DNA of 64,000 bases. Origin: Candidatus Acidiferrum sp. Lineage in GTDB: Bacteria > Methylomirabilota > Methylomirabilia > Rokubacteriales > CSP1-6. The stretch covers positions 13,035 through 77,034 of the forward strand of contig DASQAL010000254.1 in the NCBI GenBank assembly GCA_035635775.1, given 5' to 3'. Positions 28,839 to 53,795 of this stretch are shown piece by piece. The position numbers and the translations under genes are program-made. How positions within the stretch are numbered: the stretch's first letter is position 1; each line of letters starts with the position of its first letter. The notes beneath the pieces were generated by a model. It saw nothing but the letters and a program-made list of their open reading frames with translations. It was not told the origin of the DNA and made no database searches.

Positions 28839-29513
28839 TCAGTCCGCGGGCGCGTCCGCGGGGACGTCGGCCGCCTTCTTCAGTCGCTCGATCTCGGCTT
28901 CGAGCGCGTGGATCCGGTCCGCCATCTGCTCGAGCGTGCGGGCGAGCGGATCGGGCAGATCGGTCTGGTTGAGGTCGATCGCCCCGGTCACCCGCTCGCC
29001 GTTGCGGAATGTTATGCGACCGGGTACCCCGACGACAACACAGTTCTCCGGCACCTCGCGGACCACCACCGAGCCGGCGCCGATGCGGCTGCCCGCGCCG
29101 ATGGTGAACCCGCCGATCACCTTGGCGCCCGCGCCGATCATGACGTTGTCGCCGATGGTGGGGTGGCGTTTCTCCCGCTTGAGGCTGGTGCCGCCCAGGG
29201 TCACGCCCTGGAGGATGCTGACGTTCTCACCGACCTCGGCGGTCTCGCCGATCACGATGCCCATCCCGTGATCGATGAAGAGGCCCGGACCCAGGACGGC
29301 GGCCGGGTGGATCTCGATGCCGGTCAGGAAGCGCCCCACGTGCGACACCCAGCGGGCAGTGAGGTGCCAGCCGCCGCGCCAGAACCCGTGGGCGACGCGG
29401 TGGACCCAGATCGCGTGCACGCCCGGACTGCAGAGGACCACCTCGAGCGCCGACCGCGCCGCCGGGTCGCGCTCCAGCACCGTCCTCACATCCCGCCGCA
29501 TTCGCTCAAGCAT
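28839..29513 (-). CDS. cysE: serine O-acetyltransferase
   Basis: Hexapeptide-repeat LbH domain [27 protein letters not shown]..., N-terminal SATase helical domain. Confidence 0.88.
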
Positions 29514-29898
29514 GCCGATCGCTCCTCGTGTCCGCGCGGCTCAGCGCATCGCGCGCCGCCGCCCGCAGTCCCAGGGCCGCGACGTCCGCGGCGTGTCGCC
29601 GCGGCTCCGGCAGCCCGCCCACCGCCGCCTCGACCCGCGCCGCTGAGAGCTCCACCAGCGCTTCCAGCGCGCAGCCCGTCGCCACCTCGGTCGCGGCGCT
29701 CGCCGCCGCGATGGTCGGCCCGCACCCGTAGGCCTGGAACCGCGCCTCCACCACCTGCCCATCCCGCACGCGCAGGTGGAAGCGGACCAGGTCCATGCAG
29801 TCCTTGTACTCCCCTTCCCCCACTCCGTCCGGATTCCGCATGATGCCAGCGTTCCGCGGATTCCGGAAGTGATCGATGAGGACCGGGCTGTACTGCAT
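29506..29898 (-). CDS. NifU-like Fe-S cluster scaffold (IscU/NifU N-terminal-domain type, divergent)
   Basis: [10 protein letters not shown]-terminal motif, Cys at DCMD and YGCGPT; 130 aa. Confidence 0.7.
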
Positions 29899-29913
29899 CG
29901 GCTCGCCGGCCGG

Positions 29914-31068
29914 CTAGGCCCGGACCGGCATGACACTCCGCAGCTTCGCCACCAGCGGCACGGTCGACTCGACCACGTAGTCGATGTCCTCGGCGGTAGT
30001 GCTCCGCCCGAGCGAATGCCGCACCGCGCCCATCGACCACTCCACCGGCACGCCCATCGCCACCAGTACGTAGGAGGGCTCCACGTTGCCGGAGGTGCAC
30101 GCCGAGCCCGCCGACACGCCGACGCCCTTCAGATCCAGACCGAGCACGATGGATTCCGACTCCACGTGCCGGAAACAGACATTGCAGGTGCCAGGCAGCC
30201 GCCGGGTCGGGTGCCCGTTCAGCTGTACGTCGGGCACCCGGCCGCGGATCCCTTCCCAGAGGCGATCGCGTAGCGCGGTCAGCCGGACGGCCTCGTCCGC
30301 CATGTCCCGGCCGCGGATCTCGACCGCCCGGCCGAGCCCGACGATGCCCGGCACGTTCTCGGTGCCCGCGCGACGGCGCCGCTCGTGCTCGCCGCCGTGC
30401 TGGACGGAGACCATCTTGGTGCCTTTCCGGATGTACAGCCCGGCCACGCCCTTGGGCCCGTAGATCTTGTGGGCGGAGAACGACAGCATGTCGATGTTGA
30501 AGGCGTCGAGATCGATGGGCGCCTTCCCGAAGGTCTGCACCGCGTCCACGTGGAACGGGATCCCGTGCTCGCGGGCGATCGCCCCGATCTCCCGCGCGGG
30601 CTGGATGGTCCCGATCTCGGAGTTGGCGTGCATGATCGAGATCAGGATGGTGTCGGGGCGGATGGCCTGGCGCACCGCCTCGGGATCCACGAGGCCGTCG
30701 CCGTCGACGTCCAGGTAGGTGGCCTCGAAACCCAGGGTCTCGAGGTTCTGCACCGCCCGCAGCACCGCGTGGTGCTCGATCTTCGACGTGATGAGGTGGC
30801 CGCGACGGCGCCCCATCGCCACGCCCTTGATCGCCATGTTGTCGGACTCGGTGCCGCCCGAGGTGAAGACGATCTCCTCCTTGCCCACCCGGAGGAAGTG
30901 CGCCACCTGCTCGCGCGCGGTCTCGAGCCCCTCGCGCGCCTCCCGGCCGAAGCCGTGCACGCTCGACGGATTGCCGAATCGCTCGCTCCAGTACGGCAGC
31001 ATCGCCTGGACCACCTCGGGATGTACCGGGGTGGAGGCGTTGTGATCGAGATAGACCTTCCGGTTCAT
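29914..31068 (-). CDS. cysteine desulfurase (NifS/IscS class I)
   Basis: LDHNASTP, FTSGGTESDN, PLP-lysine region SFSAHKIYGPKG, active-site SAGSACTSG. Confidence 0.9.
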   Translation of the reverse strand: MNRKVYLDHNASTPVHPEVVQAMLPYWSERFGNPSSVHGFGREAREGLETAREQVAHFLRVGKEEIVFTSGGTESDNMAIKGVAMGRRRGHLITSKIEHHAVLRAVQNLETLGFEATYLDVDGDGLVDPEAVRQAIRPDTILISIMHANSEIGTIQPAREIGAIAREHGIPFHVDAVQTFGKAPIDLDAFNIDMLSFSAHKIYGPKGVAGLYIRKGTKMVSVQHGGEHERRRRAGTENVPGIVGLGRAVEIRGRDMADEAVRLTALRDRLWEGIRGRVPDVQLNGHPTRRLPGTCNVCFRHVESESIVLGLDLKGVGVSAGSACTSGNVEPSYVLVAMGVPVEWSMGAVRHSLGRSTTAEDIDYVVESTVPLVAKLRSVMPVRA

Positions 31069-31086
31069 TGACGCTCCCCTTTCACG

Positions 31087-31422
31087 ATGTTACGCTGCGC
31101 CCGCATGGCCTCGGCCAAACGGAAGCTGGGTCTGATGCTCTCCACCACCCCCGACCACCCGAACCTCGAGACCGCCATCGGGCTGTCCCGGGCCGCGCTG
31201 GACGGTGGCGGCGACGTCTACCTGTACCTGATCGACGACGCGGTGGACGCGGTGGACGATGATCGTCTTCTCGCGCTCGCCGATCGCGGACTCAAGCTCT
31301 TCGTATGCGCCTACGGCTGCCAGAAGCGGCGACGGCCCCTGTCCGAGCGCGCCACCAACTGCGGCCTCGTGGTGCTCACCGACGTGATCAACGGGACCGA
31401 TCGCTTCATCGCGCTCAACTAG
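31087..31422 (+). CDS. DsrE/TusD-like sulfur-relay protein
   Basis: DsrE-fold pattern with conserved Cys (LFVCAYGC) and C-terminal GLVVLTDVI; true start may be the internal ATG at 31105. Confidence 0.65.
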   Translation: MLRCARMASAKRKLGLMLSTTPDHPNLETAIGLSRAALDGGGDVYLYLIDDAVDAVDDDRLLALADRGLKLFVCAYGCQKRRRPLSERATNCGLVVLTDVINGTDRFIALN

Positions 31423-31423
31423 C

Positions 31424-31780
31424 GTGGCGAGCCCCAGCCAGCCCACCCTCGTCCTGATCTCGGAGGACCCGCGCGTCTCCCACCGCGCCAACGAGGCGAT
31501 GCGGATCGCGCTCGGCATCGTGGCCGGCGAGAACCAGGTGCGCATCGTGCTGACCGGCCCCGCGGTGCACCTGCTCGATGACGAGACCGACGATCTGGTG
31601 GACGGCGACGACATCGCCAAGTTTCGCGCCGCGCTCCGGAAGCTGGGCGTGCCCTTCCACATCCAGGGCGCCCCGCCCACCCCGGCCGACTGGAACGGCG
31701 ACGGGCATCCGGTGGTTCCGGTCACCGCGGCCGAGGTCGCCGCGATGCTCCCCGGGGCCACGCGCTTTCTCGTGTTCTGA
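31424..31780 (+). CDS. DsrF/TusC-like sulfur-relay protein
   Basis: DsrE/F-fold pattern (TLVLISEDP..., VRIVLTGPAV); GTG start abutting previous stop; no Cys. Confidence 0.55.
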   Translation: MASPSQPTLVLISEDPRVSHRANEAMRIALGIVAGENQVRIVLTGPAVHLLDDETDDLVDGDDIAKFRAALRKLGVPFHIQGAPPTPADWNGDGHPVVPVTAAEVAAMLPGATRFLVF

Positions 31781-32010
31781 TGGCCAGCTTCCTGCACCTC
31801 GTGAAGCGCGACTCGGCCGCGCTCGCGGGCGCGGTGATCGAGTCCAATCTCCGGGAGGCCGACGCGCGGGTCACGGTGGTCCTGCTGGACGGCGCAGTCG
31901 CGCCGTCGCTGCCCGCGGGCGTCGCGGTGCGACGCCTCGGCCCGGGGGACCTGGACTACGCGGGCCTGCTCGATCTGGTCTTCGCTCACGATCACGTGAT
32001 CACCTGGTAG
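31780..32010 (+). CDS. DsrH/TusB-like protein
   Basis: 76 aa ending ...VFAHDHVITW like the TusB C-terminus; TGATG overlap with preceding gene; lacks Cys. Confidence 0.5.
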   Translation: MASFLHLVKRDSAALAGAVIESNLREADARVTVVLLDGAVAPSLPAGVAVRRLGPGDLDYAGLLDLVFAHDHVITW

Positions 32011-32011
32011 C

Positions 32012-32212
32012 CTAGCGATCCTGATATTCCTCGTGCCACTTCATCTGGATCCCTTCCAGGATGCCCTCGTTGGAGCCCTTCGCGTCGTCCGCGAACCCGG
32101 GCAGCGCCACCACCCACTTGTGCAGGTCGGTGAAGCGCACGGTGAGCGGGTCCACGTCCGGGTGCGCGTCCATCAGGGCCAGCGCGATGTCCTCGGCGTC
32201 TTTCCACTTCAC
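32012..32212 (-). CDS. iscX: Fe-S cluster assembly protein IscX
   Basis: MKWKDAEDIALALMDAHPDVDPL... matches IscX/YfhJ. Confidence 0.85.
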   Translation of the reverse strand: MKWKDAEDIALALMDAHPDVDPLTVRFTDLHKWVVALPGFADDAKGSNEGILEGIQMKWHEEYQDR

Positions 32213-32259
32213 GGTCGATCCTCCATATTCGCTCGCCTCGCCTTCGGCGGCGGCTCGCC

Positions 32260-32583
32260 CTACTTCGGAATCTCCACGACGACATCTCCCTTCACGATCG
32301 CCTGACAGCCCAGCCGCGAGTGCAGGGTCAGGCCCTCCGCGGTGTCCAGGCGGTCTTCCTCGTCCTGCTCCATGGTGGACAGGTTCTGCTCGCCCTCCCG
32401 CACGATGACGTGGCAGGTGGTGCAGGCACAGCTCCCCCCGCAGTTGTGCTCGAGGTGGATGTCGTTGGCCAGCGCGATGTCGAGGAGCGACCCCGGCCGG
32501 CCGTGATCGGCCAGCGGGTACTTGCTGTCGTCCACCTCGACGGTCCGATTGAGCGGCAGGAACGTGACCTTGTGAACCGCCAT
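32260..32583 (-). CDS. fdx: ISC-type [2Fe-2S] ferredoxin
   Basis: CGGSCACTTCHV ... LGCQ adrenodoxin-type Cys pattern. Confidence 0.9.
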   Translation of the reverse strand: MAVHKVTFLPLNRTVEVDDSKYPLADHGRPGSLLDIALANDIHLEHNCGGSCACTTCHVIVREGEQNLSTMEQDEEDRLDTAEGLTLHSRLGCQAIVKGDVVVEIPK

Positions 32584-32611
32584 CAGGAGCTCTCCAGGTT
32601 GTGCACCGCCA

Positions 32612-34415
<1,804 letters not shown>

Positions 34416-34438
<23 letters not shown>

Positions 34439-35012
34439 GTTGGTCCTCACGCTCCCCCAGCGCGTCACTCAGGTCGTCGATGACGGTGCGCAGGTAGGCC
34501 CGGGTCGCGAGCCGCTGCTTGAACCACTCGAGCAGCGGCCGACGATCGCCCCGCTCGTCCACCAGCCGATCCCACTCCGCCGTGCGGGCGATCAGCGCCG
34601 CCGCCTCGGCCGCGGAGCGCTCCTCGAGGCGGCGACGCTCCTCGCGGAGCCGCGTGCCGGCGTCTCCGCCGAGCCCTTCCGCCTTGGCCTCCTCGAGCGC
34701 CTCCTGCACTTCCATCATCTCTTCCAGGAGCTCCCGGGGCGCCTTCGGCTTGTCGGTGGCGCCCTCCCGGACCTCGCGACCCTCTTCCAGCGCGATCAGG
34801 TACTCCACGCGCGCGAGGGGCTCGCGCAGGGCACGATAGGCGCGGTTCACCAGAGCCGACTGGCCCAGGGCTTCCGCCTGGCGCTCGGCGTCCGCGCCCT
34901 GGTGGAAATCCGGATGGTGCTGCCGCGACAGCTCGTAGAACCGCCGCTGCAGGGCCTCCCCGTCCACCCCCAGCTTGCGGGGCAGCCCGAACACCGTGAA
35001 GTAATCGCTCAC
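34416..35012 (-). CDS. hscB: co-chaperone HscB (J-domain)
   Basis: J-domain with HPD tripeptide (QHHPDF) and HscB C-terminal helical domain. Confidence 0.85.
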
Positions 35013-35076
35013 GAGCGTTTCCTTAAAACAACAACGGGCCCGTCAGGGCCCGCGTTCGTGTCTTCCGGGCCGGGCC

Positions 35077-35403
35077 TCAGGCCGAGAACGATGTCCCGCA
35101 CCCGCAACTAGATTTCGCGGTGGGGTTGACGAAGGTGAACCCGCCCTGGAGCCCCTGCGTGACGTAGTCGAGCGTGATGCCGTTCAGGTACAGGTAGCTC
35201 TTCTTGTCGCACACGACCTGCACCCCGTCGATGTCGAACTTCTTGTCGTGGGGGCCGATCTCGTTGTCGAACTCGAGCTGGTAGGAAAGGCCCGAGCAGC
35301 CGCCCCCCTTGACCCCCACCCGCAGGTAGACGTTCCCCAGATTCTGGGTCTCCATGAGCTGCTTGACCTGCTTCACCGCGGTCTCGGTCAGCGCCAGTGC
35401 CAT
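35077..35403 (-). CDS. iscA: A-type Fe-S carrier IscA
   Basis: GGGCSG and C-terminal SCGCG Cys ligands. Confidence 0.9.
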   Translation of the reverse strand: MALALTETAVKQVKQLMETQNLGNVYLRVGVKGGGCSGLSYQLEFDNEIGPHDKKFDIDGVQVVCDKKSYLYLNGITLDYVTQGLQGGFTFVNPTAKSSCGCGTSFSA

Positions 35404-35424
35404 GATGCGTCGGTCTCCTTTACC

Positions 35425-35841
35425 TTAGGACGCGTCCCGGCCCGCCGGGGCTTCGCTCGCGCTCCACTTCTCCTTGTAGTCCTGGAGCGCGGCCTTGATC
35501 GCGTCCTCGGCGAGCACCGAGCAGTGGATCTTCACCGGCGGCAGCTTCAGCTCGTTCACGATGTCGGTGTTCTTGATCTTGGCCGCCTCGCCCACCGTGC
35601 GGCCCTTGAGCCACTCGGTGGCCAGGCTCGACGAGGCGATGGCGCTGCCGCAGCCGAACGTCTTGAACTTGGCGTCCTCGATGACGCCGGTCTCGACGTT
35701 GACCTTGATCTGCAGCTTCATCACGTCGCCGCACTCGGGTGCGCCCACCAAGCCCGTTCCCACTCCCGGGGTGTCCTTGGTGAAGGACCCCACGTTGCGC
35801 GGGTTGTTGTAGTGGTCGACTACCTTATCGCTGTAGGCCAT
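35425..35841 (-). CDS. iscU: Fe-S cluster scaffold IscU
   Basis: YNNPRNVG, GAPECGD, LPPVKIHCS motifs. Confidence 0.93.
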   Translation of the reverse strand: MAYSDKVVDHYNNPRNVGSFTKDTPGVGTGLVGAPECGDVMKLQIKVNVETGVIEDAKFKTFGCGSAIASSSLATEWLKGRTVGEAAKIKNTDIVNELKLPPVKIHCSVLAEDAIKAALQDYKEKWSASEAPAGRDAS

Positions 35842-35875
35842 GTCCGCACATCCTCCTGATCGCCCGAGGGCGTCG

Positions 35876-37102
35876 TTATTCCGCCTTCCAGTGGATCGAC
35901 TTCAGGTCAACGCCTTCCTTCGCGAGCTCGTAGAGCGGCGACATCTCCCGCAGCCGCTGGATGACCTCGACCGTCTTGCGCGCCACGAAGTCCACCTCTT
36001 CCTCGGTGGAGAATCGGTGCAGTCCGAACCGGATCGACGAGTGGGCCAGCTCGGAGTCCACTCCGAGCGCCGAGATCACGTAGGACGGCTCGAGCGTCGC
36101 CGAGGTGCACGCCGAGCCCGAGGCCAGCGCCGCCTCCTTGTTGAGCCCCATCAGCACCGACTCCCCCTCCACGTAGGCGAAGGAGATGTTCAGGTTGTGG
36201 GGCAGACGCCTCTCCGGGTGCCCGTTCACGTAGGCCTCATCCACCTTGGCGAGGATCTGCTCCTGGAGCCGATCACGGAGCGCGGCGAGCCGCTTACCCT
36301 CCTCGGCCATGACCTCGCGAGAGATCTCCGCCGCCTTCCCGAAACCGACCACCAGCGGCACCGGCACCGTGCCCGAGCGCATGCCCCGCTCGTGGCCGCC
36401 GCCGTCCACCATGGGCGCGATACGCACGCGCGGATTCTTCCGCCGCACGTAGAGCGCGCCGACGCCCTTGGGCCCGTACAGCATGTGGGCGGTGGCCGAC
36501 AGCAGGTCGACGCCCATGGCCTCGACGTCCACCGGGATCTTGCCCACCGCCTGGGTGGCGTCGGTGTGGAAGAGGATCCCCTTCTCCTTGGCCAGCTTGC
36601 CGAGCGCGGCCACCGGCTGGATCGTCCCGATCTCGTTGTTGGCGAACATGATCGAGATCAGGATGGTCTTGTCGGTCAGCGCGGCCCGGACCGCCTCGAC
36701 GTCCACCAGCCCGTCGCGGCCCACCGACACGTAGGTCACCTCGACACCCTGCCGCTCCAGCCGCTTGCAGACGTCGAGCGTGGCCCGCTGCTCGATCGTG
36801 GTGGTGACGATGTGGTTGCCCTTCTCCCGGTACATCTCGACGACGCCCTTGAGCGCCAGGTTGATCGCCTCGGTGCCGCCGGAGGTGAAGACGACCTCCT
36901 TCGGGTCCCGGGCCCCGATCAGCTTGGCGATCTGCTCACGGGCCACGTCCACTCCACCCTCGGCTTCCCAGCCGAAGGAATGGTTGCGGCTCGCCGGGTG
37001 ACCGAACTTCTCCGTGAAATAGGGGATCATCGCCTCGAGCACTCGGGGATCCACCGGGGTCGTGGACTGGCTGTCCATGAAGATCGGAAGCTTCAACGCC
37101 AT
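35876..37102 (-). CDS. iscS: cysteine desulfurase IscS
   Basis: FTSGGTEAINLA, SATAHMLYGPKGVGALY PLP-Lys, SSGSACTS active-site Cys loop. Confidence 0.93.
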   Translation of the reverse strand: MALKLPIFMDSQSTTPVDPRVLEAMIPYFTEKFGHPASRNHSFGWEAEGGVDVAREQIAKLIGARDPKEVVFTSGGTEAINLALKGVVEMYREKGNHIVTTTIEQRATLDVCKRLERQGVEVTYVSVGRDGLVDVEAVRAALTDKTILISIMFANNEIGTIQPVAALGKLAKEKGILFHTDATQAVGKIPVDVEAMGVDLLSATAHMLYGPKGVGALYVRRKNPRVRIAPMVDGGGHERGMRSGTVPVPLVVGFGKAAEISREVMAEEGKRLAALRDRLQEQILAKVDEAYVNGHPERRLPHNLNISFAYVEGESVLMGLNKEAALASGSACTSATLEPSYVISALGVDSELAHSSIRFGLHRFSTEEEVDFVARKTVEVIQRLREMSPLYELAKEGVDLKSIHWKAE

Positions 37103-37121
37103 GCCGTCTTTCTCCTCGGGT

Positions 37122-37562
37122 CTAATGAATGACCGCCAGCGGTGTGGCCGGGACGGTCGGCTCCGCCCCCAGCTCCGCGAGCGTCATGCTATCCAGTACG
37201 TGGCTGATGCTGGCCTGGATCTTCTGCACGGGTCCTCGCAGGTTGCAGCGCGCGAACTGCGGGCAATCGTCCCGCTCGCTCATGCAGCTCACCACGCTGA
37301 TCGGGCCCTCGAGCGCCCGGACGACCTGCCCGACCGTGATCTCCGCCGGGTCCCGGGTCAGCAGGTAGCCCCCCTTGGGGCCGTTGTGACTGGCGACCAG
37401 CTTCTTCTTCGCGAGGCGCTGGAGGATCTTGGCCAGCCGCTCGGGCGGGATGTGAAACTCCTCCGCGATCCGCTTCGCGCTCACCGCGCCGTCGTCGCCG
37501 TGCGAGGCGATGAAGTGCACGGCCATGAGCCCGTAGTCCGCTCGCTTCGTGAATCTCAGCAA
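37122..37562 (-). CDS. iscR: Rrf2-family Fe-S regulator IscR
   Basis: N-terminal wHTH (RADYGLMAVHFIA) and three-Cys cluster ligands C-x6-C-x5-C. Confidence 0.88.
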   Translation of the reverse strand: MLRFTKRADYGLMAVHFIASHGDDGAVSAKRIAEEFHIPPERLAKILQRLAKKKLVASHNGPKGGYLLTRDPAEITVGQVVRALEGPISVVSCMSERDDCPQFARCNLRGPVQKIQASISHVLDSMTLAELGAEPTVPATPLAVIH

Positions 37563-39460: not shown

Positions 39461-39706
39461 ATGAGCGAGCCGCGACCGGCCGTCCGAGTATTCAGCAGTC
39501 CCACCTGAGGGCCCTGCAAGGCGGCGAAAGAGTTCCTTTCGTCTCAGGGGGTGGCGTTCGAGGACATCAATGTCCTGGCCGACGCGGAGGCCCGGGAAGA
39601 GCTGATCAAGCTGACGGGAGGCATGAGCATCCCGGTCATCGTGGTCGGAGACCAGGTGGTTCGCGGCTTCAACAAGCCGCAGCTCAAGACCCTGCTGGGA
39701 ATCTAG
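39461..39706 (+). CDS. glutaredoxin-like selenoprotein, active site U-G-P-C with selenocysteine encoded by in-frame TGA at 39506-39508
   Basis: ATG(39461) MSEPRPAVRVFSSPT-TGA-GPCKAAKEFLSSQGVAFEDINVLADAEAREELIKLTGGMSIPVIVVGDQVVRGFNKPQLKTLLGI-TAG; the TGA sits exactly where the first Cys of the Grx CxxC motif belongs; hairpin (putative bSECIS) starts a few nt 3' of the TGA. Confidence 0.7.
39512..39549 (+). promoter_or_regulatory. putative bacterial SECIS stem-loop downstream of the UGA in the Grx-like gene
   Basis: CCCUG-CAA-GGCGAAAG[AGUUC]CUUUCGUC-U-CAGGG: 8-bp inner stem (one G-U), 5-nt apical loop, extended by CCCUG/CAGGG outer stem. Confidence 0.5.
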
Positions 39707-50280: not shown

Positions 50281-50544
50281 ATGGACGGAGCGTCGCGCGA
50301 GATCGGGTGCCCGGAATGCGTCGAGCTGCTCGCGGATTACATCGACGGGTCGCTCCCCCCGGATCAGACGGCGCAGCTCGAATGGCACCTGGACGGCTGC
50401 CCGCCCTGCGTGGCCTTCGTCAATACCTACAAGGGCACCGTCAACGCCGCCCGCCGTCTCCGTGAGCAGCCCGAGACCAGCCTCCCCGCCGAGCTCCGCC
50501 AGAAGCTGATCGCGTTCCTGAAGCGCTCCGACGCATCTCGTTAG
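50281..50544 (+). CDS. zf-HC2 (ZAS-type) putative anti-sigma factor
   Basis: CPECVELLADYIDGSLPPDQTAQLEWHLDGCPPC = C-x2-C ... H-x3-C-x2-C zinc-finger anti-sigma (RsrA/ChrR-like) signature. Confidence 0.7.
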   Translation: MDGASREIGCPECVELLADYIDGSLPPDQTAQLEWHLDGCPPCVAFVNTYKGTVNAARRLREQPETSLPAELRQKLIAFLKRSDASR

Positions 50545-50547
50545 CTC

Positions 50548-50590
50548 GGAGGGGGCTGCGCCCCCCTTCCGAACCTCCCCCCAAAGGACA
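50548..50590. repeat. G-rich hairpin repeat (inverted copy of the 19388-19428 element) after the anti-sigma gene; putative bidirectional terminator
   Basis: ggagggggctgcgccccccttccgaacctccccccaa is the reverse complement of ttggggggaggttcggaaggggggcg(cga)gcccccctcc at 19388-19428. Confidence 0.6.
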
Positions 50591-50641
50591 GGCTGCGCGG
50601 GCGGAGCCCGCGCTCGAAGCGGCTGACCTTACCGAGAACGC

Positions 50642-51709
50642 TTAGGCTAGCGCGAGTCGCGGCTCGGCGGTCACCTCGCCGATCTCCCACACCGGCTCGC
50701 GCGCGCTCGCGAAGGCCTCGCGCACCGCGTCGGCCCTCGCCGGGTCCACCGCGAAGAGCAGGCCGCCCGAGGTCTCCGACTCACAGAGCAGGTTGACCAT
50801 CGCGTCCGGCACCGCCGGGTCGATGCGGAGCCGCCCGAAGACCTCTTCGAGGTAGCGGCGGTTTCGCCCCATGCCGCCGCTCCAGCCCCCCAGATCGGCC
50901 AGCGCCCGCGCGCCTGGTAAGAGCGGCAGGTCCTGGCTTCGAATGGTCAGGCCCGCCCCCGAGGCCGCCACCATCTCGCTGGCGTGGCCGAGGAGCCCGA
51001 ACCCGGTGATGTCGGTGGCGCCGGTCGCCCCCGCCTCCTGCGCCACCCGGGCCGCCACGCGGTTGAGCCGGAGCATGCTCTGCACCGCGCCGTCGAGGAC
51101 CGCGGGCTCGCACTTGTCGTTCTTGGCCGCGGTGGCGATCACCCCGGTGCCGAGGGGCTTGGACAGGAACACGCGCTGACCCGCGCGGAGTCCGCCCTTG
51201 ATCAGGATGCGCCGCGGGTCGACCCGGCCGGTCACGCAGAGGCCGTACTTCGGCTCCGCGTCCACGACGGTGTGGCCGCCCGCGATGACGCCGCCCGCCT
51301 CGTGCACCTTGTCAGCGCCGCCCCGGAAGACGGCCGCGATGATGTCCTTGGGCAGCTCGCGCGGGAAGCCCGCCACGTTGAGCGCGAACAGCACCTGCCC
51401 GCCCATCGCGTACACGTCGGACATCGAGTTCGCGGCCGCGATCGCCCCGAAGAGATAGGGGTCGTCGACGATGGGCGGGAAGAAGTCGACCGTCTCCACG
51501 ATGGCCACGTCATCGGTCACGCGGTAGACGGCGGCGTCGTCGCTCCGGCCGAGCCCCACCAGCAGATCGGGGTGCTCCTCGCGGCGCAGATCCCCGAGCA
51601 CGGCCTGGAGATCTCCAGGACCCATCTTGGACGCTCACCCCGCGCAGGCGGCGTAGGCGGTGAGCCGGATCTCCTTGCCGGTCTTGGGATCGATCAGCTT
51701 CGGGTCCAT
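50642..51709 (-). CDS. selD: selenide, water dikinase (selenophosphate synthetase), selenocysteine-containing form (in-frame TGA at 51635-51637)
   Basis: Listed ORF starts MGPGDLQAVL... (SelD core: DAAV, AIR-synthase-like fold) but the reverse strand continues upstream in frame: ATG(51709) MDPKLIDPKTGKEIRLTAYAACAG-TGA-ASKMGPGDL..., aligning Sec with the catalytic Cys17 of E. coli SelD (TQYSHGAGCGCK); perfect palindrome CCTGGAGATCTCCAGG 15 nt 3' of the TGA. Confidence 0.8.
51600..51622 (-). promoter_or_regulatory. putative bSECIS hairpin for selD UGA
   Basis: CCUGGAGAUCUCCAGG (6-bp stem, 4-nt loop, extendable) beginning 15 nt downstream of the in-frame UGA. Confidence 0.5.
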
Positions 51710-51740
51710 GACCGTGGAGCGGGGACCGCGCGAGAGGCGG

Positions 51741-52634
51741 TCAGACGGCCTCGGCCTCGACGAAGGCGCGGAAAGCCTCCGCGAGGGGCGAGCGGCTGCG
51801 CTCCCGGTGGGTGGCGAGGTAGAAGGCCCGGGCGATCTTGAGATCCTTCACCCGGAGACACCAGACGCTGCCCGCCCGGCACTCGTCCTCGACGGCCCGC
51901 CGCGACACGAGCGACACGCCGACGCCCGCCTTCACCGCCTGCTTGATCGCCTGGGTCGAGCCCATCTCGCCGACCACGCGGAAGGCGGCGATGTCGCTGC
52001 CCGCCTGGGTGAGCGCGGCCTCGAGGGCCGCCCGCGTGCCCGACCCGCGCTCGCGGAGCAGGAGCGGCTCGGCGCGCAGCTCCTCCATCGTCACGTGCTT
52101 GCGCCCGTGCCAGGGATGCGCCGCGCTCACGATGAGGACGATGTCGTCGGGGAACAGCTCGCGGAACTCGATGCCCCGGTGACCCGATCGCGCCCCGACC
52201 ACGCCCACCTCGGCGCGGCCCTCGGCCACCCACTCCGTCACCGCCTGGCTGCCCCCGATGAGCAAGGTGATCGCGATATCGGGGAACTTCTCCTTGAAGC
52301 GGCCGATCAGGGCGGGGAGGATGTACTCACCGGGAATCGTGCTGGCACCCACGAGCAGCTCGCCGCTCATCCGCCCCTGGAAGCTCTCCATCGCCTGCCG
52401 CGCCTCGCGGGACAGGGCAAGGAGGCGCTGCGCGTAGCCCTGCAGCAGGGCGCCGCCCTTGGTGACGGCGGCCCCGCGGCCGAGGCGATCGAGCAGGCGC
52501 ACGCCCAGCTCGTCCTCGAGGCTGCGGATGTGCTCCGAGACGGTCGGCTGCGTCAGGAACAGCGCGTCGGCGGCCTTGGAAAACGAGCCGAGCTCGGCGA
52601 CCTTGACGAAAATCTCGAGCTGGCGTAGATCCAC
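51741..52634 (-). CDS. LysR-family transcriptional regulator
   Basis: N-terminal HTH (LRQLEIFVKVAELGSFSKAADALFLTQPTVSEHIRSLEDELG) and LysR substrate-binding domain. Confidence 0.9.
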   Translation of the reverse strand: MDLRQLEIFVKVAELGSFSKAADALFLTQPTVSEHIRSLEDELGVRLLDRLGRGAAVTKGGALLQGYAQRLLALSREARQAMESFQGRMSGELLVGASTIPGEYILPALIGRFKEKFPDIAITLLIGGSQAVTEWVAEGRAEVGVVGARSGHRGIEFRELFPDDIVLIVSAAHPWHGRKHVTMEELRAEPLLLRERGSGTRAALEAALTQAGSDIAAFRVVGEMGSTQAIKQAVKAGVGVSLVSRRAVEDECRAGSVWCLRVKDLKIARAFYLATHRERSRSPLAEAFRAFVEAEAV

Positions 52635-52742
52635 GGGCCCGAGTATAGAAGCGCCCCGGGGCCGTGTAAAGCCGAGGCCCGCGGCAGAGACACGAAAGGG
52701 GCCCGGAGGCCCCTCGTCGGACGCGGCGGCGCTACCGCTGGC

Positions 52743-52958
52743 TCAGCGGCAGCCGCACCCGCCCCCGCAACAGCCGCCTCCGCCCGTGGGCGCCGACGAG
52801 GCATCGCTCATGCGCCCGCCGGTCTTCACCCCCACGACGGAGAGCCGCCGGCTCACGCGCTCGCTCTCGCACGAGACGCACACCACCGCCGACGGGCGCT
52901 GCACGAACTTCTCGAACTCGGCCCCGCAGGCCAAGCACGCGTATTCATAGATGGGCAT
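52743..52958 (-). CDS. FmdB-family zinc-ribbon protein with Gly/Cys-rich C-terminal tail
   Basis: MPIYEYACLACGAEFE ... CVSCES (CxxC...CxxC) then GGGGCCGGGCGCR tail. Confidence 0.7.
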   Translation of the reverse strand: MPIYEYACLACGAEFEKFVQRPSAVVCVSCESERVSRRLSVVGVKTGGRMSDASSAPTGGGGCCGGGCGCR

Positions 52959-52994
52959 GACGCCGCTCCGATCCTTGTCCCGACCAGTCCGCGG

Positions 52995-53198
52995 TTACTG
53001 TCCGCCGCGCTGGACGTAGCTCTTCACGAACTCCTCGGCGTTCTCCTCAAGGATGTCGTCGATCTCGTCGAGGAGGCTGTCCAGCTCCTCCTTGATCTTC
53101 TTGCCCTTCTTGGAGAGCTCGGCACTACCCGCGCCGCCGTCGTCACCACCCTCGGCAGGCTTGGTCGGCCTCGTTTCCTTCTTCTTCTGCTCAGCCAT
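52995..53198 (-). CDS. pup: prokaryotic ubiquitin-like protein Pup (GGQ C-terminus)
   Basis: 67 aa, disordered acidic N-half and C-terminal LDEIDDILEENAEEFVKSYVQRGGQ, matching the Pup signature (Mtb: LDEIDDVLEENAEDFVRAYVQKGGQ). Confidence 0.8.
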   Translation of the reverse strand: MAEQKKKETRPTKPAEGGDDGGAGSAELSKKGKKIKEELDSLLDEIDDILEENAEEFVKSYVQRGGQ

Positions 53199-53243
53199 GG
53201 GACGTCACCTCCTGGCCCCGGTCCGCGGAGCCGGCGTCAGGGC

Positions 53244-53795
53244 CTAGACCGTCGGCAGCACGATCCCCTGCTGGCCCTGATACTTCCCCTGCCGGTCAGC
53301 ATATGACGTCTCGCAGGCCTCGTCCGATTCAAAGAAAAGGACCTGCGCGATGCCCTCATTGGCGTAGATCTTCGCCGGGAGCGGCGTGGTGTTGCTGATC
53401 TCGAGCGTCACGTACCCCTCCCACTCCGGCTCGAACGGCGTCACGTTCGTGATGACGCCGCACCGCGCGTAGGTCGACTTCCCTACGCAGATCGTCAGCA
53501 CGTTGCGCGGGATCTTGAAGTACTCCACCGAGCGTCCCAGCGCGAACGAGTTGGGCGGGATCACCGCGACCTCGCCCTGATAGTCGACGAAAGACCGCGG
53601 GTCGAAGCTCTTCGGATCCACGATCGTGGTGTTGATATTGGTGAAGATCTTGAACTCATCCGCGATGCGGATGTCGTACCCGTAGGAGGAGAGGCCGTAG
53701 GAGATCCCGCCCTTGCGCACCTGACGGTCTTCGAAGGGCTTGATCATGCCCTTCTCCACGGCCATGCGCCGGATCCAGCGGTCGCTCTTGATCAC
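53244..53795 (-). CDS. dcd: dCTP deaminase
   Basis: dUTPase-like fold motifs ([25 protein letters not shown]). Confidence 0.88.

Follow-up and report, generated by a model that had tools for sequence, protein, structure and literature searches.

The selD gene and its interrupted reading frame

The DNA considered here is a window of 64,000 nucleotides (64 kb) from the soil bacterium Candidatus Acidiferrum sp. (contig DASQAL010000254.1). Its minus strand carries a gene for the selenophosphate synthetase SelD, whose reading frame contains a TGA codon at the position of the catalytic cysteine, and this gene lies directly behind that of a LysR-type regulator (Table 1). The listed open reading frame (ORF) of selD (50642-51625, minus strand) starts with MGPGDL and yields a product of 327 amino acids. 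The same frame can be read from an ATG at 51709-51707, through the TGA at 51637-51635, to the TAA at 50644-50642. The extended product begins with MDPKLIDPKTGKEIRLTAYAACAG-U-ASKMGPGDL: 24 codons precede the UGA, and Ala-Ser-Lys separates it from Met29, where the listed ORF starts. No in-frame start other than this ATG is present between the LysR stop (51741) and the selD ATG. The GC content at third codon positions (GC3) is approximately 93% across selD, and the frame is intact on both sides of the TGA. The original prediction had proposed, from the DNA sequence alone, that SelD is itself a selenoprotein here; its coordinates and sequences (ORF start, TGA and upstream ATG) all proved correct when the frame was read again.

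In public collections, the exact sequence of 327 amino acids is named 'selenide,water dikinase' and is carried by 25 cluster members. The full-length protein, with the selenocysteine (Sec) written as X, has no exact match in the public gene-call collection. In the alignment, homologs carry I, V or L at the position of Met29.

Table 1. Features of the selD locus and of the second UGA-containing gene (coordinates are those of the window).
Feature	Coordinates	Strand	Basis and remarks
selD, full-length coding sequence	50642..51709	-	355 codons including Sec25, plus the TAA stop (50644-50642)
Putative selenocysteine insertion sequence (SECIS) hairpin, GG-U-CCUGGA[GAUC]UCCAGG-CC	51602..51622	-	Folds and clade conservation
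Internal Met29 codon	51623..51625	-	Start chosen by gene callers, giving the truncated product of 327 amino acids; ORF list and public copies
In-frame UGA (Sec25), at the position of E. coli Cys17	51635..51637	-	Alignments; TGA in 77 of 80 loci
LysR_Se, selenium metabolism-associated LysR regulator	51741..52634	-	NF040786, 311.8 bits; synteny
Sigma-70-like promoter, TTTACA-17-TATACT	52642..52670	-	Only promoter-like site in 50400-53300; putative function
Hairpin AGGGGCC-UCCG-GGCCCCU, followed by UUUCGUG	52697..52714	-	Sequence; equivalents in relatives; putative terminator
Grx-like gene, second putative selenoprotein gene, motif T-U-G-P-C	39461..39706	+	UGA at 39506-39508; family models and TGA conservation

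Identity and active site of the product

When the UGA is translated as Cys, the product of 355 amino acids scores 350.7 bits against the selD model TIGR00476 (cutoff 125), with residues 15-325 covering positions 1-310 of 311. The alignment begins at residue 15, i.e. upstream of the TGA. The cutoff of NF002098 is exceeded as well (311.7 versus 299 bits). In phmmer searches against the sequences of the PDB, E. coli SelD (3u0o) was matched over residues 13-346 (E = 3e-65) and Aquifex aeolicus SelD (2yye) with E = 4e-57. The TGA had been predicted to stand for the essential cysteine of the SelD loop, and both the phmmer and the MAFFT alignments bear this out: U25 is placed opposite Cys17 of the E. 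coli enzyme and K28 opposite Lys20. Both residues lie upstream of the start in the public gene calls. The Asp motifs of the ATP/metal site are also retained, as DDAAVY, TVDFF, SDVYAMGG and TDITGFG align with E. coli (D51, D68, D91 and D227).

In E. coli SelD, both Cys17 and Lys20 are essential. The product that starts at Met29 lacks the equivalents of both and is therefore predicted to be catalytically dead. The closest match for the loop itself is found in the Aquifex structure, where SGCAAKVGPGDLQEIL is nearly identical to AGUASKMGPGDLQAVL of the window. The 2yye structure construct contains Cys at the critical position, at which native Aquifex SelD carries Sec.

A second thiol is found close to the UGA. 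Cys22 (51644-51646, minus strand) is located three residues before Sec (C-A-G-U) and is invariant in all 46 distinct sequences of the Rokubacteria clade. The corresponding motif reads C-A-G-C in two homologs of the Cys form (loci L070 and L071 of the set described below) and G-A-G-C-G-C in E. coli. With its thiol, Cys22 might resolve or protect the selenol.

Conservation of the UGA codon and of the upstream peptide

Relatives were gathered by scanning genomes, one for each species, which yielded 80 loci with 51-91% identity. The closest of these are metagenome-assembled genomes (MAGs) of Candidatus Rokuibacteriota/Methylomirabilota, which assigns the window to this lineage. The NC10 and Chloroflexota loci are farther away. 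The sequence upstream of each match was translated to identify the codon at the Cys17 position. It is TGA at 77 of the 80 loci and TGC at the other three (L070, L071 and L073). The codon thus forms a Sec/Cys pair, with TGA in the window versus TGC in these three homologs and Cys in both E. coli and the Aquifex structure construct.

The upstream extension is conserved in homologs. Of the 12 codons that precede the UGA, eight encode the same amino acid in all 46 Rokubacteria-clade sequences (R, L, T, Y, A, C, A, G), and each of these residues is written by two to five synonymous codons. From this combination of amino acid conservation and synonymous variation it follows that the upstream segment is translated in this frame and is kept under purifying selection.

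The hairpin downstream of the UGA

A perfect palindrome of 16 nucleotides, CCTGGAGATCTCCAGG, is located at 51619-51604 (minus strand), 15 nucleotides after the UGA. In the RNA it can form a stem of 6-8 bp with the apical loop GAUC (51610-51613), which lies 21 nucleotides from the UGA. The window contains only eight perfect palindromes of this length, and the probability of finding one by chance within approximately 15 nucleotides of a given TGA is therefore about 2e-3. For bacterial SECIS elements, the consensus comprises a stem of 4-16 bp, a loop of 3-9 nucleotides with a G in its first two positions, and a distance of 16-37 nucleotides between loop and UGA (PMC13188914). The selD hairpin agrees with it: the stem counts 6 bp (8 bp in relatives) and the loop has four nucleotides, begins with G and stands at 21 nucleotides.

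Most relatives have a clean stem of 8 bp with the same GAUC loop, and this version is kept in 39 of the 46 clade sequences. In the alignment of the 46 sequences, standard pairs occupy 95% of the cells; shifting the 3' partners by one to three columns lowers this share to 39-56%. Compensatory changes on both sides occur at three pairs of the hairpin. At the closing position, 27 sequences have C-G and 14 have G-C, a swap that couples Ala+Glu versus Gly+Asp in the protein; in L008, a U-A pair has become C-G. None of 500 shuffles reached the observed covariation score. The codon usage is equally unusual: the 5' arm and the loop are written by four consecutive A/T-ending codons (GGT/GCT, CCT, GGA, GAT) that are near-invariant in the clade, while only 24 of the 356 codons of selD end in A or T. 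In the NC10 and Chloroflexi relatives, a hairpin of other sequence (GGUCC-GGCG-GACC) is present at the same position.

The SECIS palindrome that had been predicted 15 nucleotides past the UGA is thus supported by its fit to the consensus, its conservation in the clade, the covariation and the rare codons. On the level of sequence comparison, the retention of TGA and hairpin, the covariation and the rare codons are taken together as decisive evidence that the arrangement is not due to chance.

A second UGA-containing gene and probable Sec decoding in the lineage

The Grx-like gene of the window had been put forward as corroboration of Sec decoding, and it has stood up in this role. Its UGA is a TGA in all 77 metagenome relatives, and the peptide upstream of it is conserved. 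So is a hairpin, (G)ACGAAAG-AGUWY-CUUUCGU(C), which follows 22 nucleotides after the UGA and is likewise written in A/T-rich codons. With U replaced by C, the protein scores 85.7 bits against TIGR02196 (cutoff 88.55) and 59.2 bits against the Uxx_star family (cutoff 66). Gene callers would either overlook this gene or place its start too far downstream. A scan of the coding composition revealed no further TGA-interrupted genes in the window beyond selD and the Grx-like gene; the other candidates are ordinary gene junctions.

A UGA with its upstream peptide could not persist in 77 species-level genomes without being decoded, which is why Sec decoding is inferred for the lineage. The evidence that Rokubacteria decode Sec is indirect but strong, and it agrees with the report of a selenoprotein-rich Methylomirabilota MAG: the 63 selenoprotein genes predicted there make up the largest predicted bacterial selenoproteome (PMC13188914).

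Among the relatives, two Chloroflexi loci carry a gene for tRNA-Sec (anticodon tca) immediately upstream of the Sec-type selD (L052, 1831-1927; L058, 2782-2878). An ORF of 643 amino acids that follows selD in the NC10 locus L041 was considered as SelB, but it was identified as a substrate-binding protein of the peptide/nickel type instead.

Weighing the evidence

A number of observations speak against the Sec reading. The genes selA, selB and selC (tRNA-Sec) were not found by ARAGORN and NCBIfam scans, which were confined to the 64-kb window. ARAGORN detected no tRNA at all in the window, and the NCBIfam search of its large unassigned ORFs returned an aminotransferase, malic enzyme, RpoD, biotin carboxylase, acyl-CoA dehydrogenase and NifS, without any Sec machinery. 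Against the high GC content of its surroundings, the hairpin of selD folds with an energy no better than that of shuffled sequences (z = -0.5 to -1.0). As the z-scores were not significant for any hairpin tested, thermodynamic stability was dropped as evidence. In addition, the stem is weaker in the window than in the relatives: one of its pairs is lost to an Ala codon (GCC) in place of Asp/Glu, which leaves 6 bp and a bulged extension. The loop reads G-A-U-C, as opposed to the commoner G-[G/U] pattern. Finally, Rfam gave no relevant match, neither at the gathering threshold for the whole window nor at E <= 10 for 51540-51720.

Four other explanations can be set against this reading. The TGA might be a genuine stop, with SelD comprising 327 amino acids from the ATG at 51625 and the 24 upstream codons serving as an untranslated leader. 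Gene callers do output this very product, which 25 cluster members carry, and an ATG is indeed available four codons past the TGA. Such a protein, however, would be devoid of the Cys17 and Lys20 equivalents, the alignment to the SelD hidden Markov model starts upstream of the TGA, and the homologs have I, V or L where this start would require Met. Above all, the 12 upstream codons are under purifying selection at the amino acid level while their synonymous sites are free, and translation under purifying selection rules out a true stop, a pseudogene and a sequencing error alike. A genuine stop is accordingly considered extremely improbable. The chance of a pseudogene, or of a TGC misread during sequencing or assembly, is next to nil: TGA and TGC differ by one base only, but the TGA recurs in 77 independent assemblies of different species and studies, so that this explanation is effectively refuted, and the intact frame with its high GC3 on both sides of the codon is at odds with decay.

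It is also very unlikely that the UGA is decoded as Cys, Trp or Gly, through near-cognate decoding or an altered code, rather than as Sec. The lack of Sec machinery in the window would suit this explanation, and low-level insertion of Cys or Trp at UGA is known in bacteria and could bootstrap the first SelD molecules. On the other hand, TGA is the commonest ordinary stop among the genes of the window, and the genetic code is therefore standard. The codon moreover pairs with Cys in homologs and is followed by a conserved SECIS-type hairpin at the canonical distance, an arrangement that the Grx-like gene repeats with its UGA at a redox Cys position and a hairpin behind it. The phylum has furthermore been reported to be rich in selenoproteins (PMC13188914). 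The palindrome, in turn, might have been kept for a reason other than Sec insertion, be it the amino acid constraint on G/A-P-G-D-L-Q or a function as DNA site, for example as a LysR operator. It is a perfect palindrome in the DNA, regulators of the LysR type bind dyad sites, and even the SelD of Aquifex retains the PGDL motif. Yet a constraint on the protein gives no reason why, in a GC-rich genome, the synonymous codons ending in A/T should be fixed, and the paired swap between G-C and C-G changes two amino acids jointly (Gly+Asp versus Ala+Glu). The operator was rejected, given that NC10 and Chloroflexi relatives without a LysR neighbor retain a hairpin of different sequence at this position, as expected for an RNA element. 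Overall, a purpose of the palindrome unrelated to SECIS function is hardly credible.

The LysR_Se regulator and the probable transcription unit

The claim that a LysR regulator sits immediately upstream of selD was borne out, and its family could moreover be specified. The LysR ORF matches NF040786 (LysR_Sec_metab) over its full length, with residues 1-294 of 297 aligned to positions 1-296 of 298 and a score of 311.8 bits (cutoff 250). All other LysR models remain below their own cutoffs, the next-best at 203 bits. At NCBI, the exact sequence is named 'selenium metabolism-associated LysR family transcriptional regulator'. Since LysR_Se is defined by genomic linkage, the adjoining selD matches the definition of the subfamily (PMC5322559).

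The regulator gene runs in the same direction as selD and ends 31 nucleotides before the selD ATG. In most of the 45 Rokubacteria-clade loci it immediately precedes selD, but this neighbor is absent at the NC10 loci and at the Chloroflexi loci save L067 (34% identity). Upstream of the regulator, one promoter-like site was detected in the region 50400-53300, versus 0.1 expected from shuffles. Its TATACT and a -35-like element are conserved in L001-L011. The -10 element ends seven nucleotides before the GTG start of LysR, a spacing that is kept in close relatives, some of which have ATG starts; because of this short distance, the lysR-selD mRNA is possibly leaderless. Farther upstream, the hairpin at 52697..52714 has equivalents with changed stems in L002-L009. 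It is terminator-like, although the terminator scan missed it because of its short T-run, and it is likely the terminator of the upstream gene for an FmdB-like protein. As such, it would mark the start of the lysR-selD unit. Most likely, lysR and selD form a single transcription unit that would be read from the promoter-like site at 52670-52642.

In five Rokubacteria-clade relatives (L008, L013, L014, L026 and L031), selD is directly followed by a gene for a 'putative selenate ABC transporter substrate-binding protein' (ABC, ATP-binding cassette). This protein scores 337.7 bits against TIGR04553 (cutoff 250) and is accompanied by PhnC- and PhnE-like subunits (L008, 4070-6635; L013, 4089-6650). 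No homologs of these transporter genes are present in the window.

Proposed mechanism

Taken together, it is highly probable that the gene encodes a SelD with Sec25 inserted at the UGA by means of a SECIS hairpin, that the public product is truncated, and that the gene belongs to a unit linked to LysR_Se. That SelD is itself a selenoprotein, as first proposed, is supported by homology, the Sec/Cys pairing, the conservation of TGA and peptide, and the conserved hairpin. In the proposed mechanism, 50642-51709 (minus strand) would encode the full-length SelD, with selenocysteine as residue 25 in the glycine-rich N-terminal loop. The UGA at 51637-51635 would be recoded by the bacterial Sec system. 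To this end, SelB loaded with Sec-tRNA(Sec) would bind the hairpin that starts 12-15 nucleotides downstream (CCUGGA/UCCAGG, loop GAUC) and thereby bring Sec to the ribosome. In the finished enzyme, Sec25 is expected to take over the role of Cys17 in the binding of selenium, and Lys28 that of Lys20.

The lysR-selD unit would place the synthesis of selenophosphate under the control of a selenium-responsive transcription factor. A positive feedback, an idea dating back to 1996, is plausible here, in which SelD would need its own product, selenophosphate, for its synthesis. A more far-reaching proposal is that in Rokubacteria lysR_Se and selD are transcribed together, as a conserved and possibly leaderless pair, in which a control by selenium on two levels creates a bistable or self-reinforcing switch. 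On the level of transcription, the regulator would sense the selenium status, possibly via selenophosphate (the SelD product); on that of translation, the Sec codon within selD itself would respond. In some species, the unit would extend into the putative selenate ABC transporter. The synteny, the conserved promoter-like element and the tight spacing of the genes fit this switch, but it is rather doubtful that it operates in this form.

The practical value of the analysis lies in the correction of the annotation, as the public gene calls represent a fragment started at Met29, without the catalytic Sec and the catalytic Lys. Pipelines that are blind to UGA as a Sec codon mis-model SelD and miss other selenoproteins of the lineage, such as the Grx-like protein encoded at 39461.

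Neighboring genes

Upstream of lysR-selD, the minus strand encodes an FmdB-type zinc-ribbon protein with a Cys/Gly-rich tail (52743-52958), a Pup-like protein ending in GGQ (PF05639, 76 bits; 52995-53198) and a dCTP deaminase (53244-53795). The gene order Pup / FmdB-type zinc-ribbon / LysR / selD is syntenic in most of the 45 Rokubacteria-clade loci. On the other side, selD converges with a gene for a zf-HC2 anti-sigma-like protein (50281-50544, plus strand). The two are separated by 50545-50620, where GC-rich hairpins without a clear T-run are found (e.g. GCGGGC-UCC-GCCCGC and GGGGGGC-GCA-GCCCCC); this may be a shared terminator region. In some relatives, an insert of 1.3-2.6 kb is located between selD and the anti-sigma gene. 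The inserts of L002 and L016 were inspected by eye, without a family scan, and contain ORFs that look like a repeat-type protein of 810 amino acids and a protein of 371 amino acids beside a thioredoxin-like ORF, but nothing related to selenium was seen.

Elsewhere in the window, ORF translations alone point to a complete ISC (iron-sulfur cluster) operon, with IscR, IscS, IscU, IscA, HscB, HscA and ferredoxin (28839-37562, minus strand; 31087-32010, plus strand). It is adjoined by a gene for a cysteine desulfurase of the NifS type (TIGR03402, 521.8 bits, just below the cutoff of 530.75), by NifU-like and CysE-like genes and by three small ORFs, one of which has a weak, sub-threshold match to DsrE/F. 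Enzymes of the cysteine desulfurase type are also able to provide SelD with selenium.

Comparison with known systems

Selenocysteine-containing SelD, its possible dependence on itself and the linkage to LysR_Se are already published and are known biology. Of the selenoproteins of bacteria, SelD belongs to the most widespread (PMC1794560; PMC13188914), and its Sec form ranks second among them. In 1996, the Sec form was described for mouse, Haemophilus and Methanococcus, in a paper that also raised the question of autoregulation (Guimaraes et al., PNAS 93:15086, via PMC1717018). LysR_Se was defined by Lin et al. in 2015 by its linkage to selA, selB or selD and was proposed to sense selenophosphate (PMC5322559). 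A proline in the substrate-binding domain is described as specific to this subfamily (Lin et al. 2015), and its link to selenium metabolism has been captured in a curated NCBI model. For its archaeal ortholog HrsM, experimental support is cited in a later review (PMC9312934). The present finding raises no new question and is an ordinary case of a known selenoprotein.

As in the Sec-SelD/SPS2 proteins of Haemophilus influenzae, Aquifex aeolicus and Methanocaldococcus jannaschii and in mammalian SEPHS2, the Sec of the enzyme described here is predicted within the loop (G-U-x-x-K), and as in other bacterial Sec-SelD genes, a hairpin follows downstream, inside the coding region. It differs from the known cases in its host (Rokubacteria/Methylomirabilota), in a hairpin sequence of its own, with a stem of 8 bp and the GAUC loop, and in the clade-invariant Cys of the C-A-G-U motif. 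E. coli SelD (3u0o) shares Lys20 and the Asp residues of the metal/ATP site, but has Cys17 where the gene of the window has UGA/Sec. Its gene is not known to be adjacent to one for LysR_Se.

The regulator resembles the LysR_Se/HrsM subfamily (NF040786) in that it adjoins a gene of the Sec pathway, the feature by which the subfamily is defined (PMC5322559). While many LysR regulators are transcribed divergently, the one in the window is co-directional with selD, at a distance of 31 nucleotides, and apparently part of the same unit. The hairpin, finally, shares with the SECIS element of the E. coli fdhF type and the bSECISearch consensus its position right after the UGA and a small apical loop that starts with G, at a distance of 21 nucleotides within the permitted 16-37. 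It has no sequence similarity to the fdhF element, is not represented by any Rfam model, and carries A instead of G/U as the second base of the loop.

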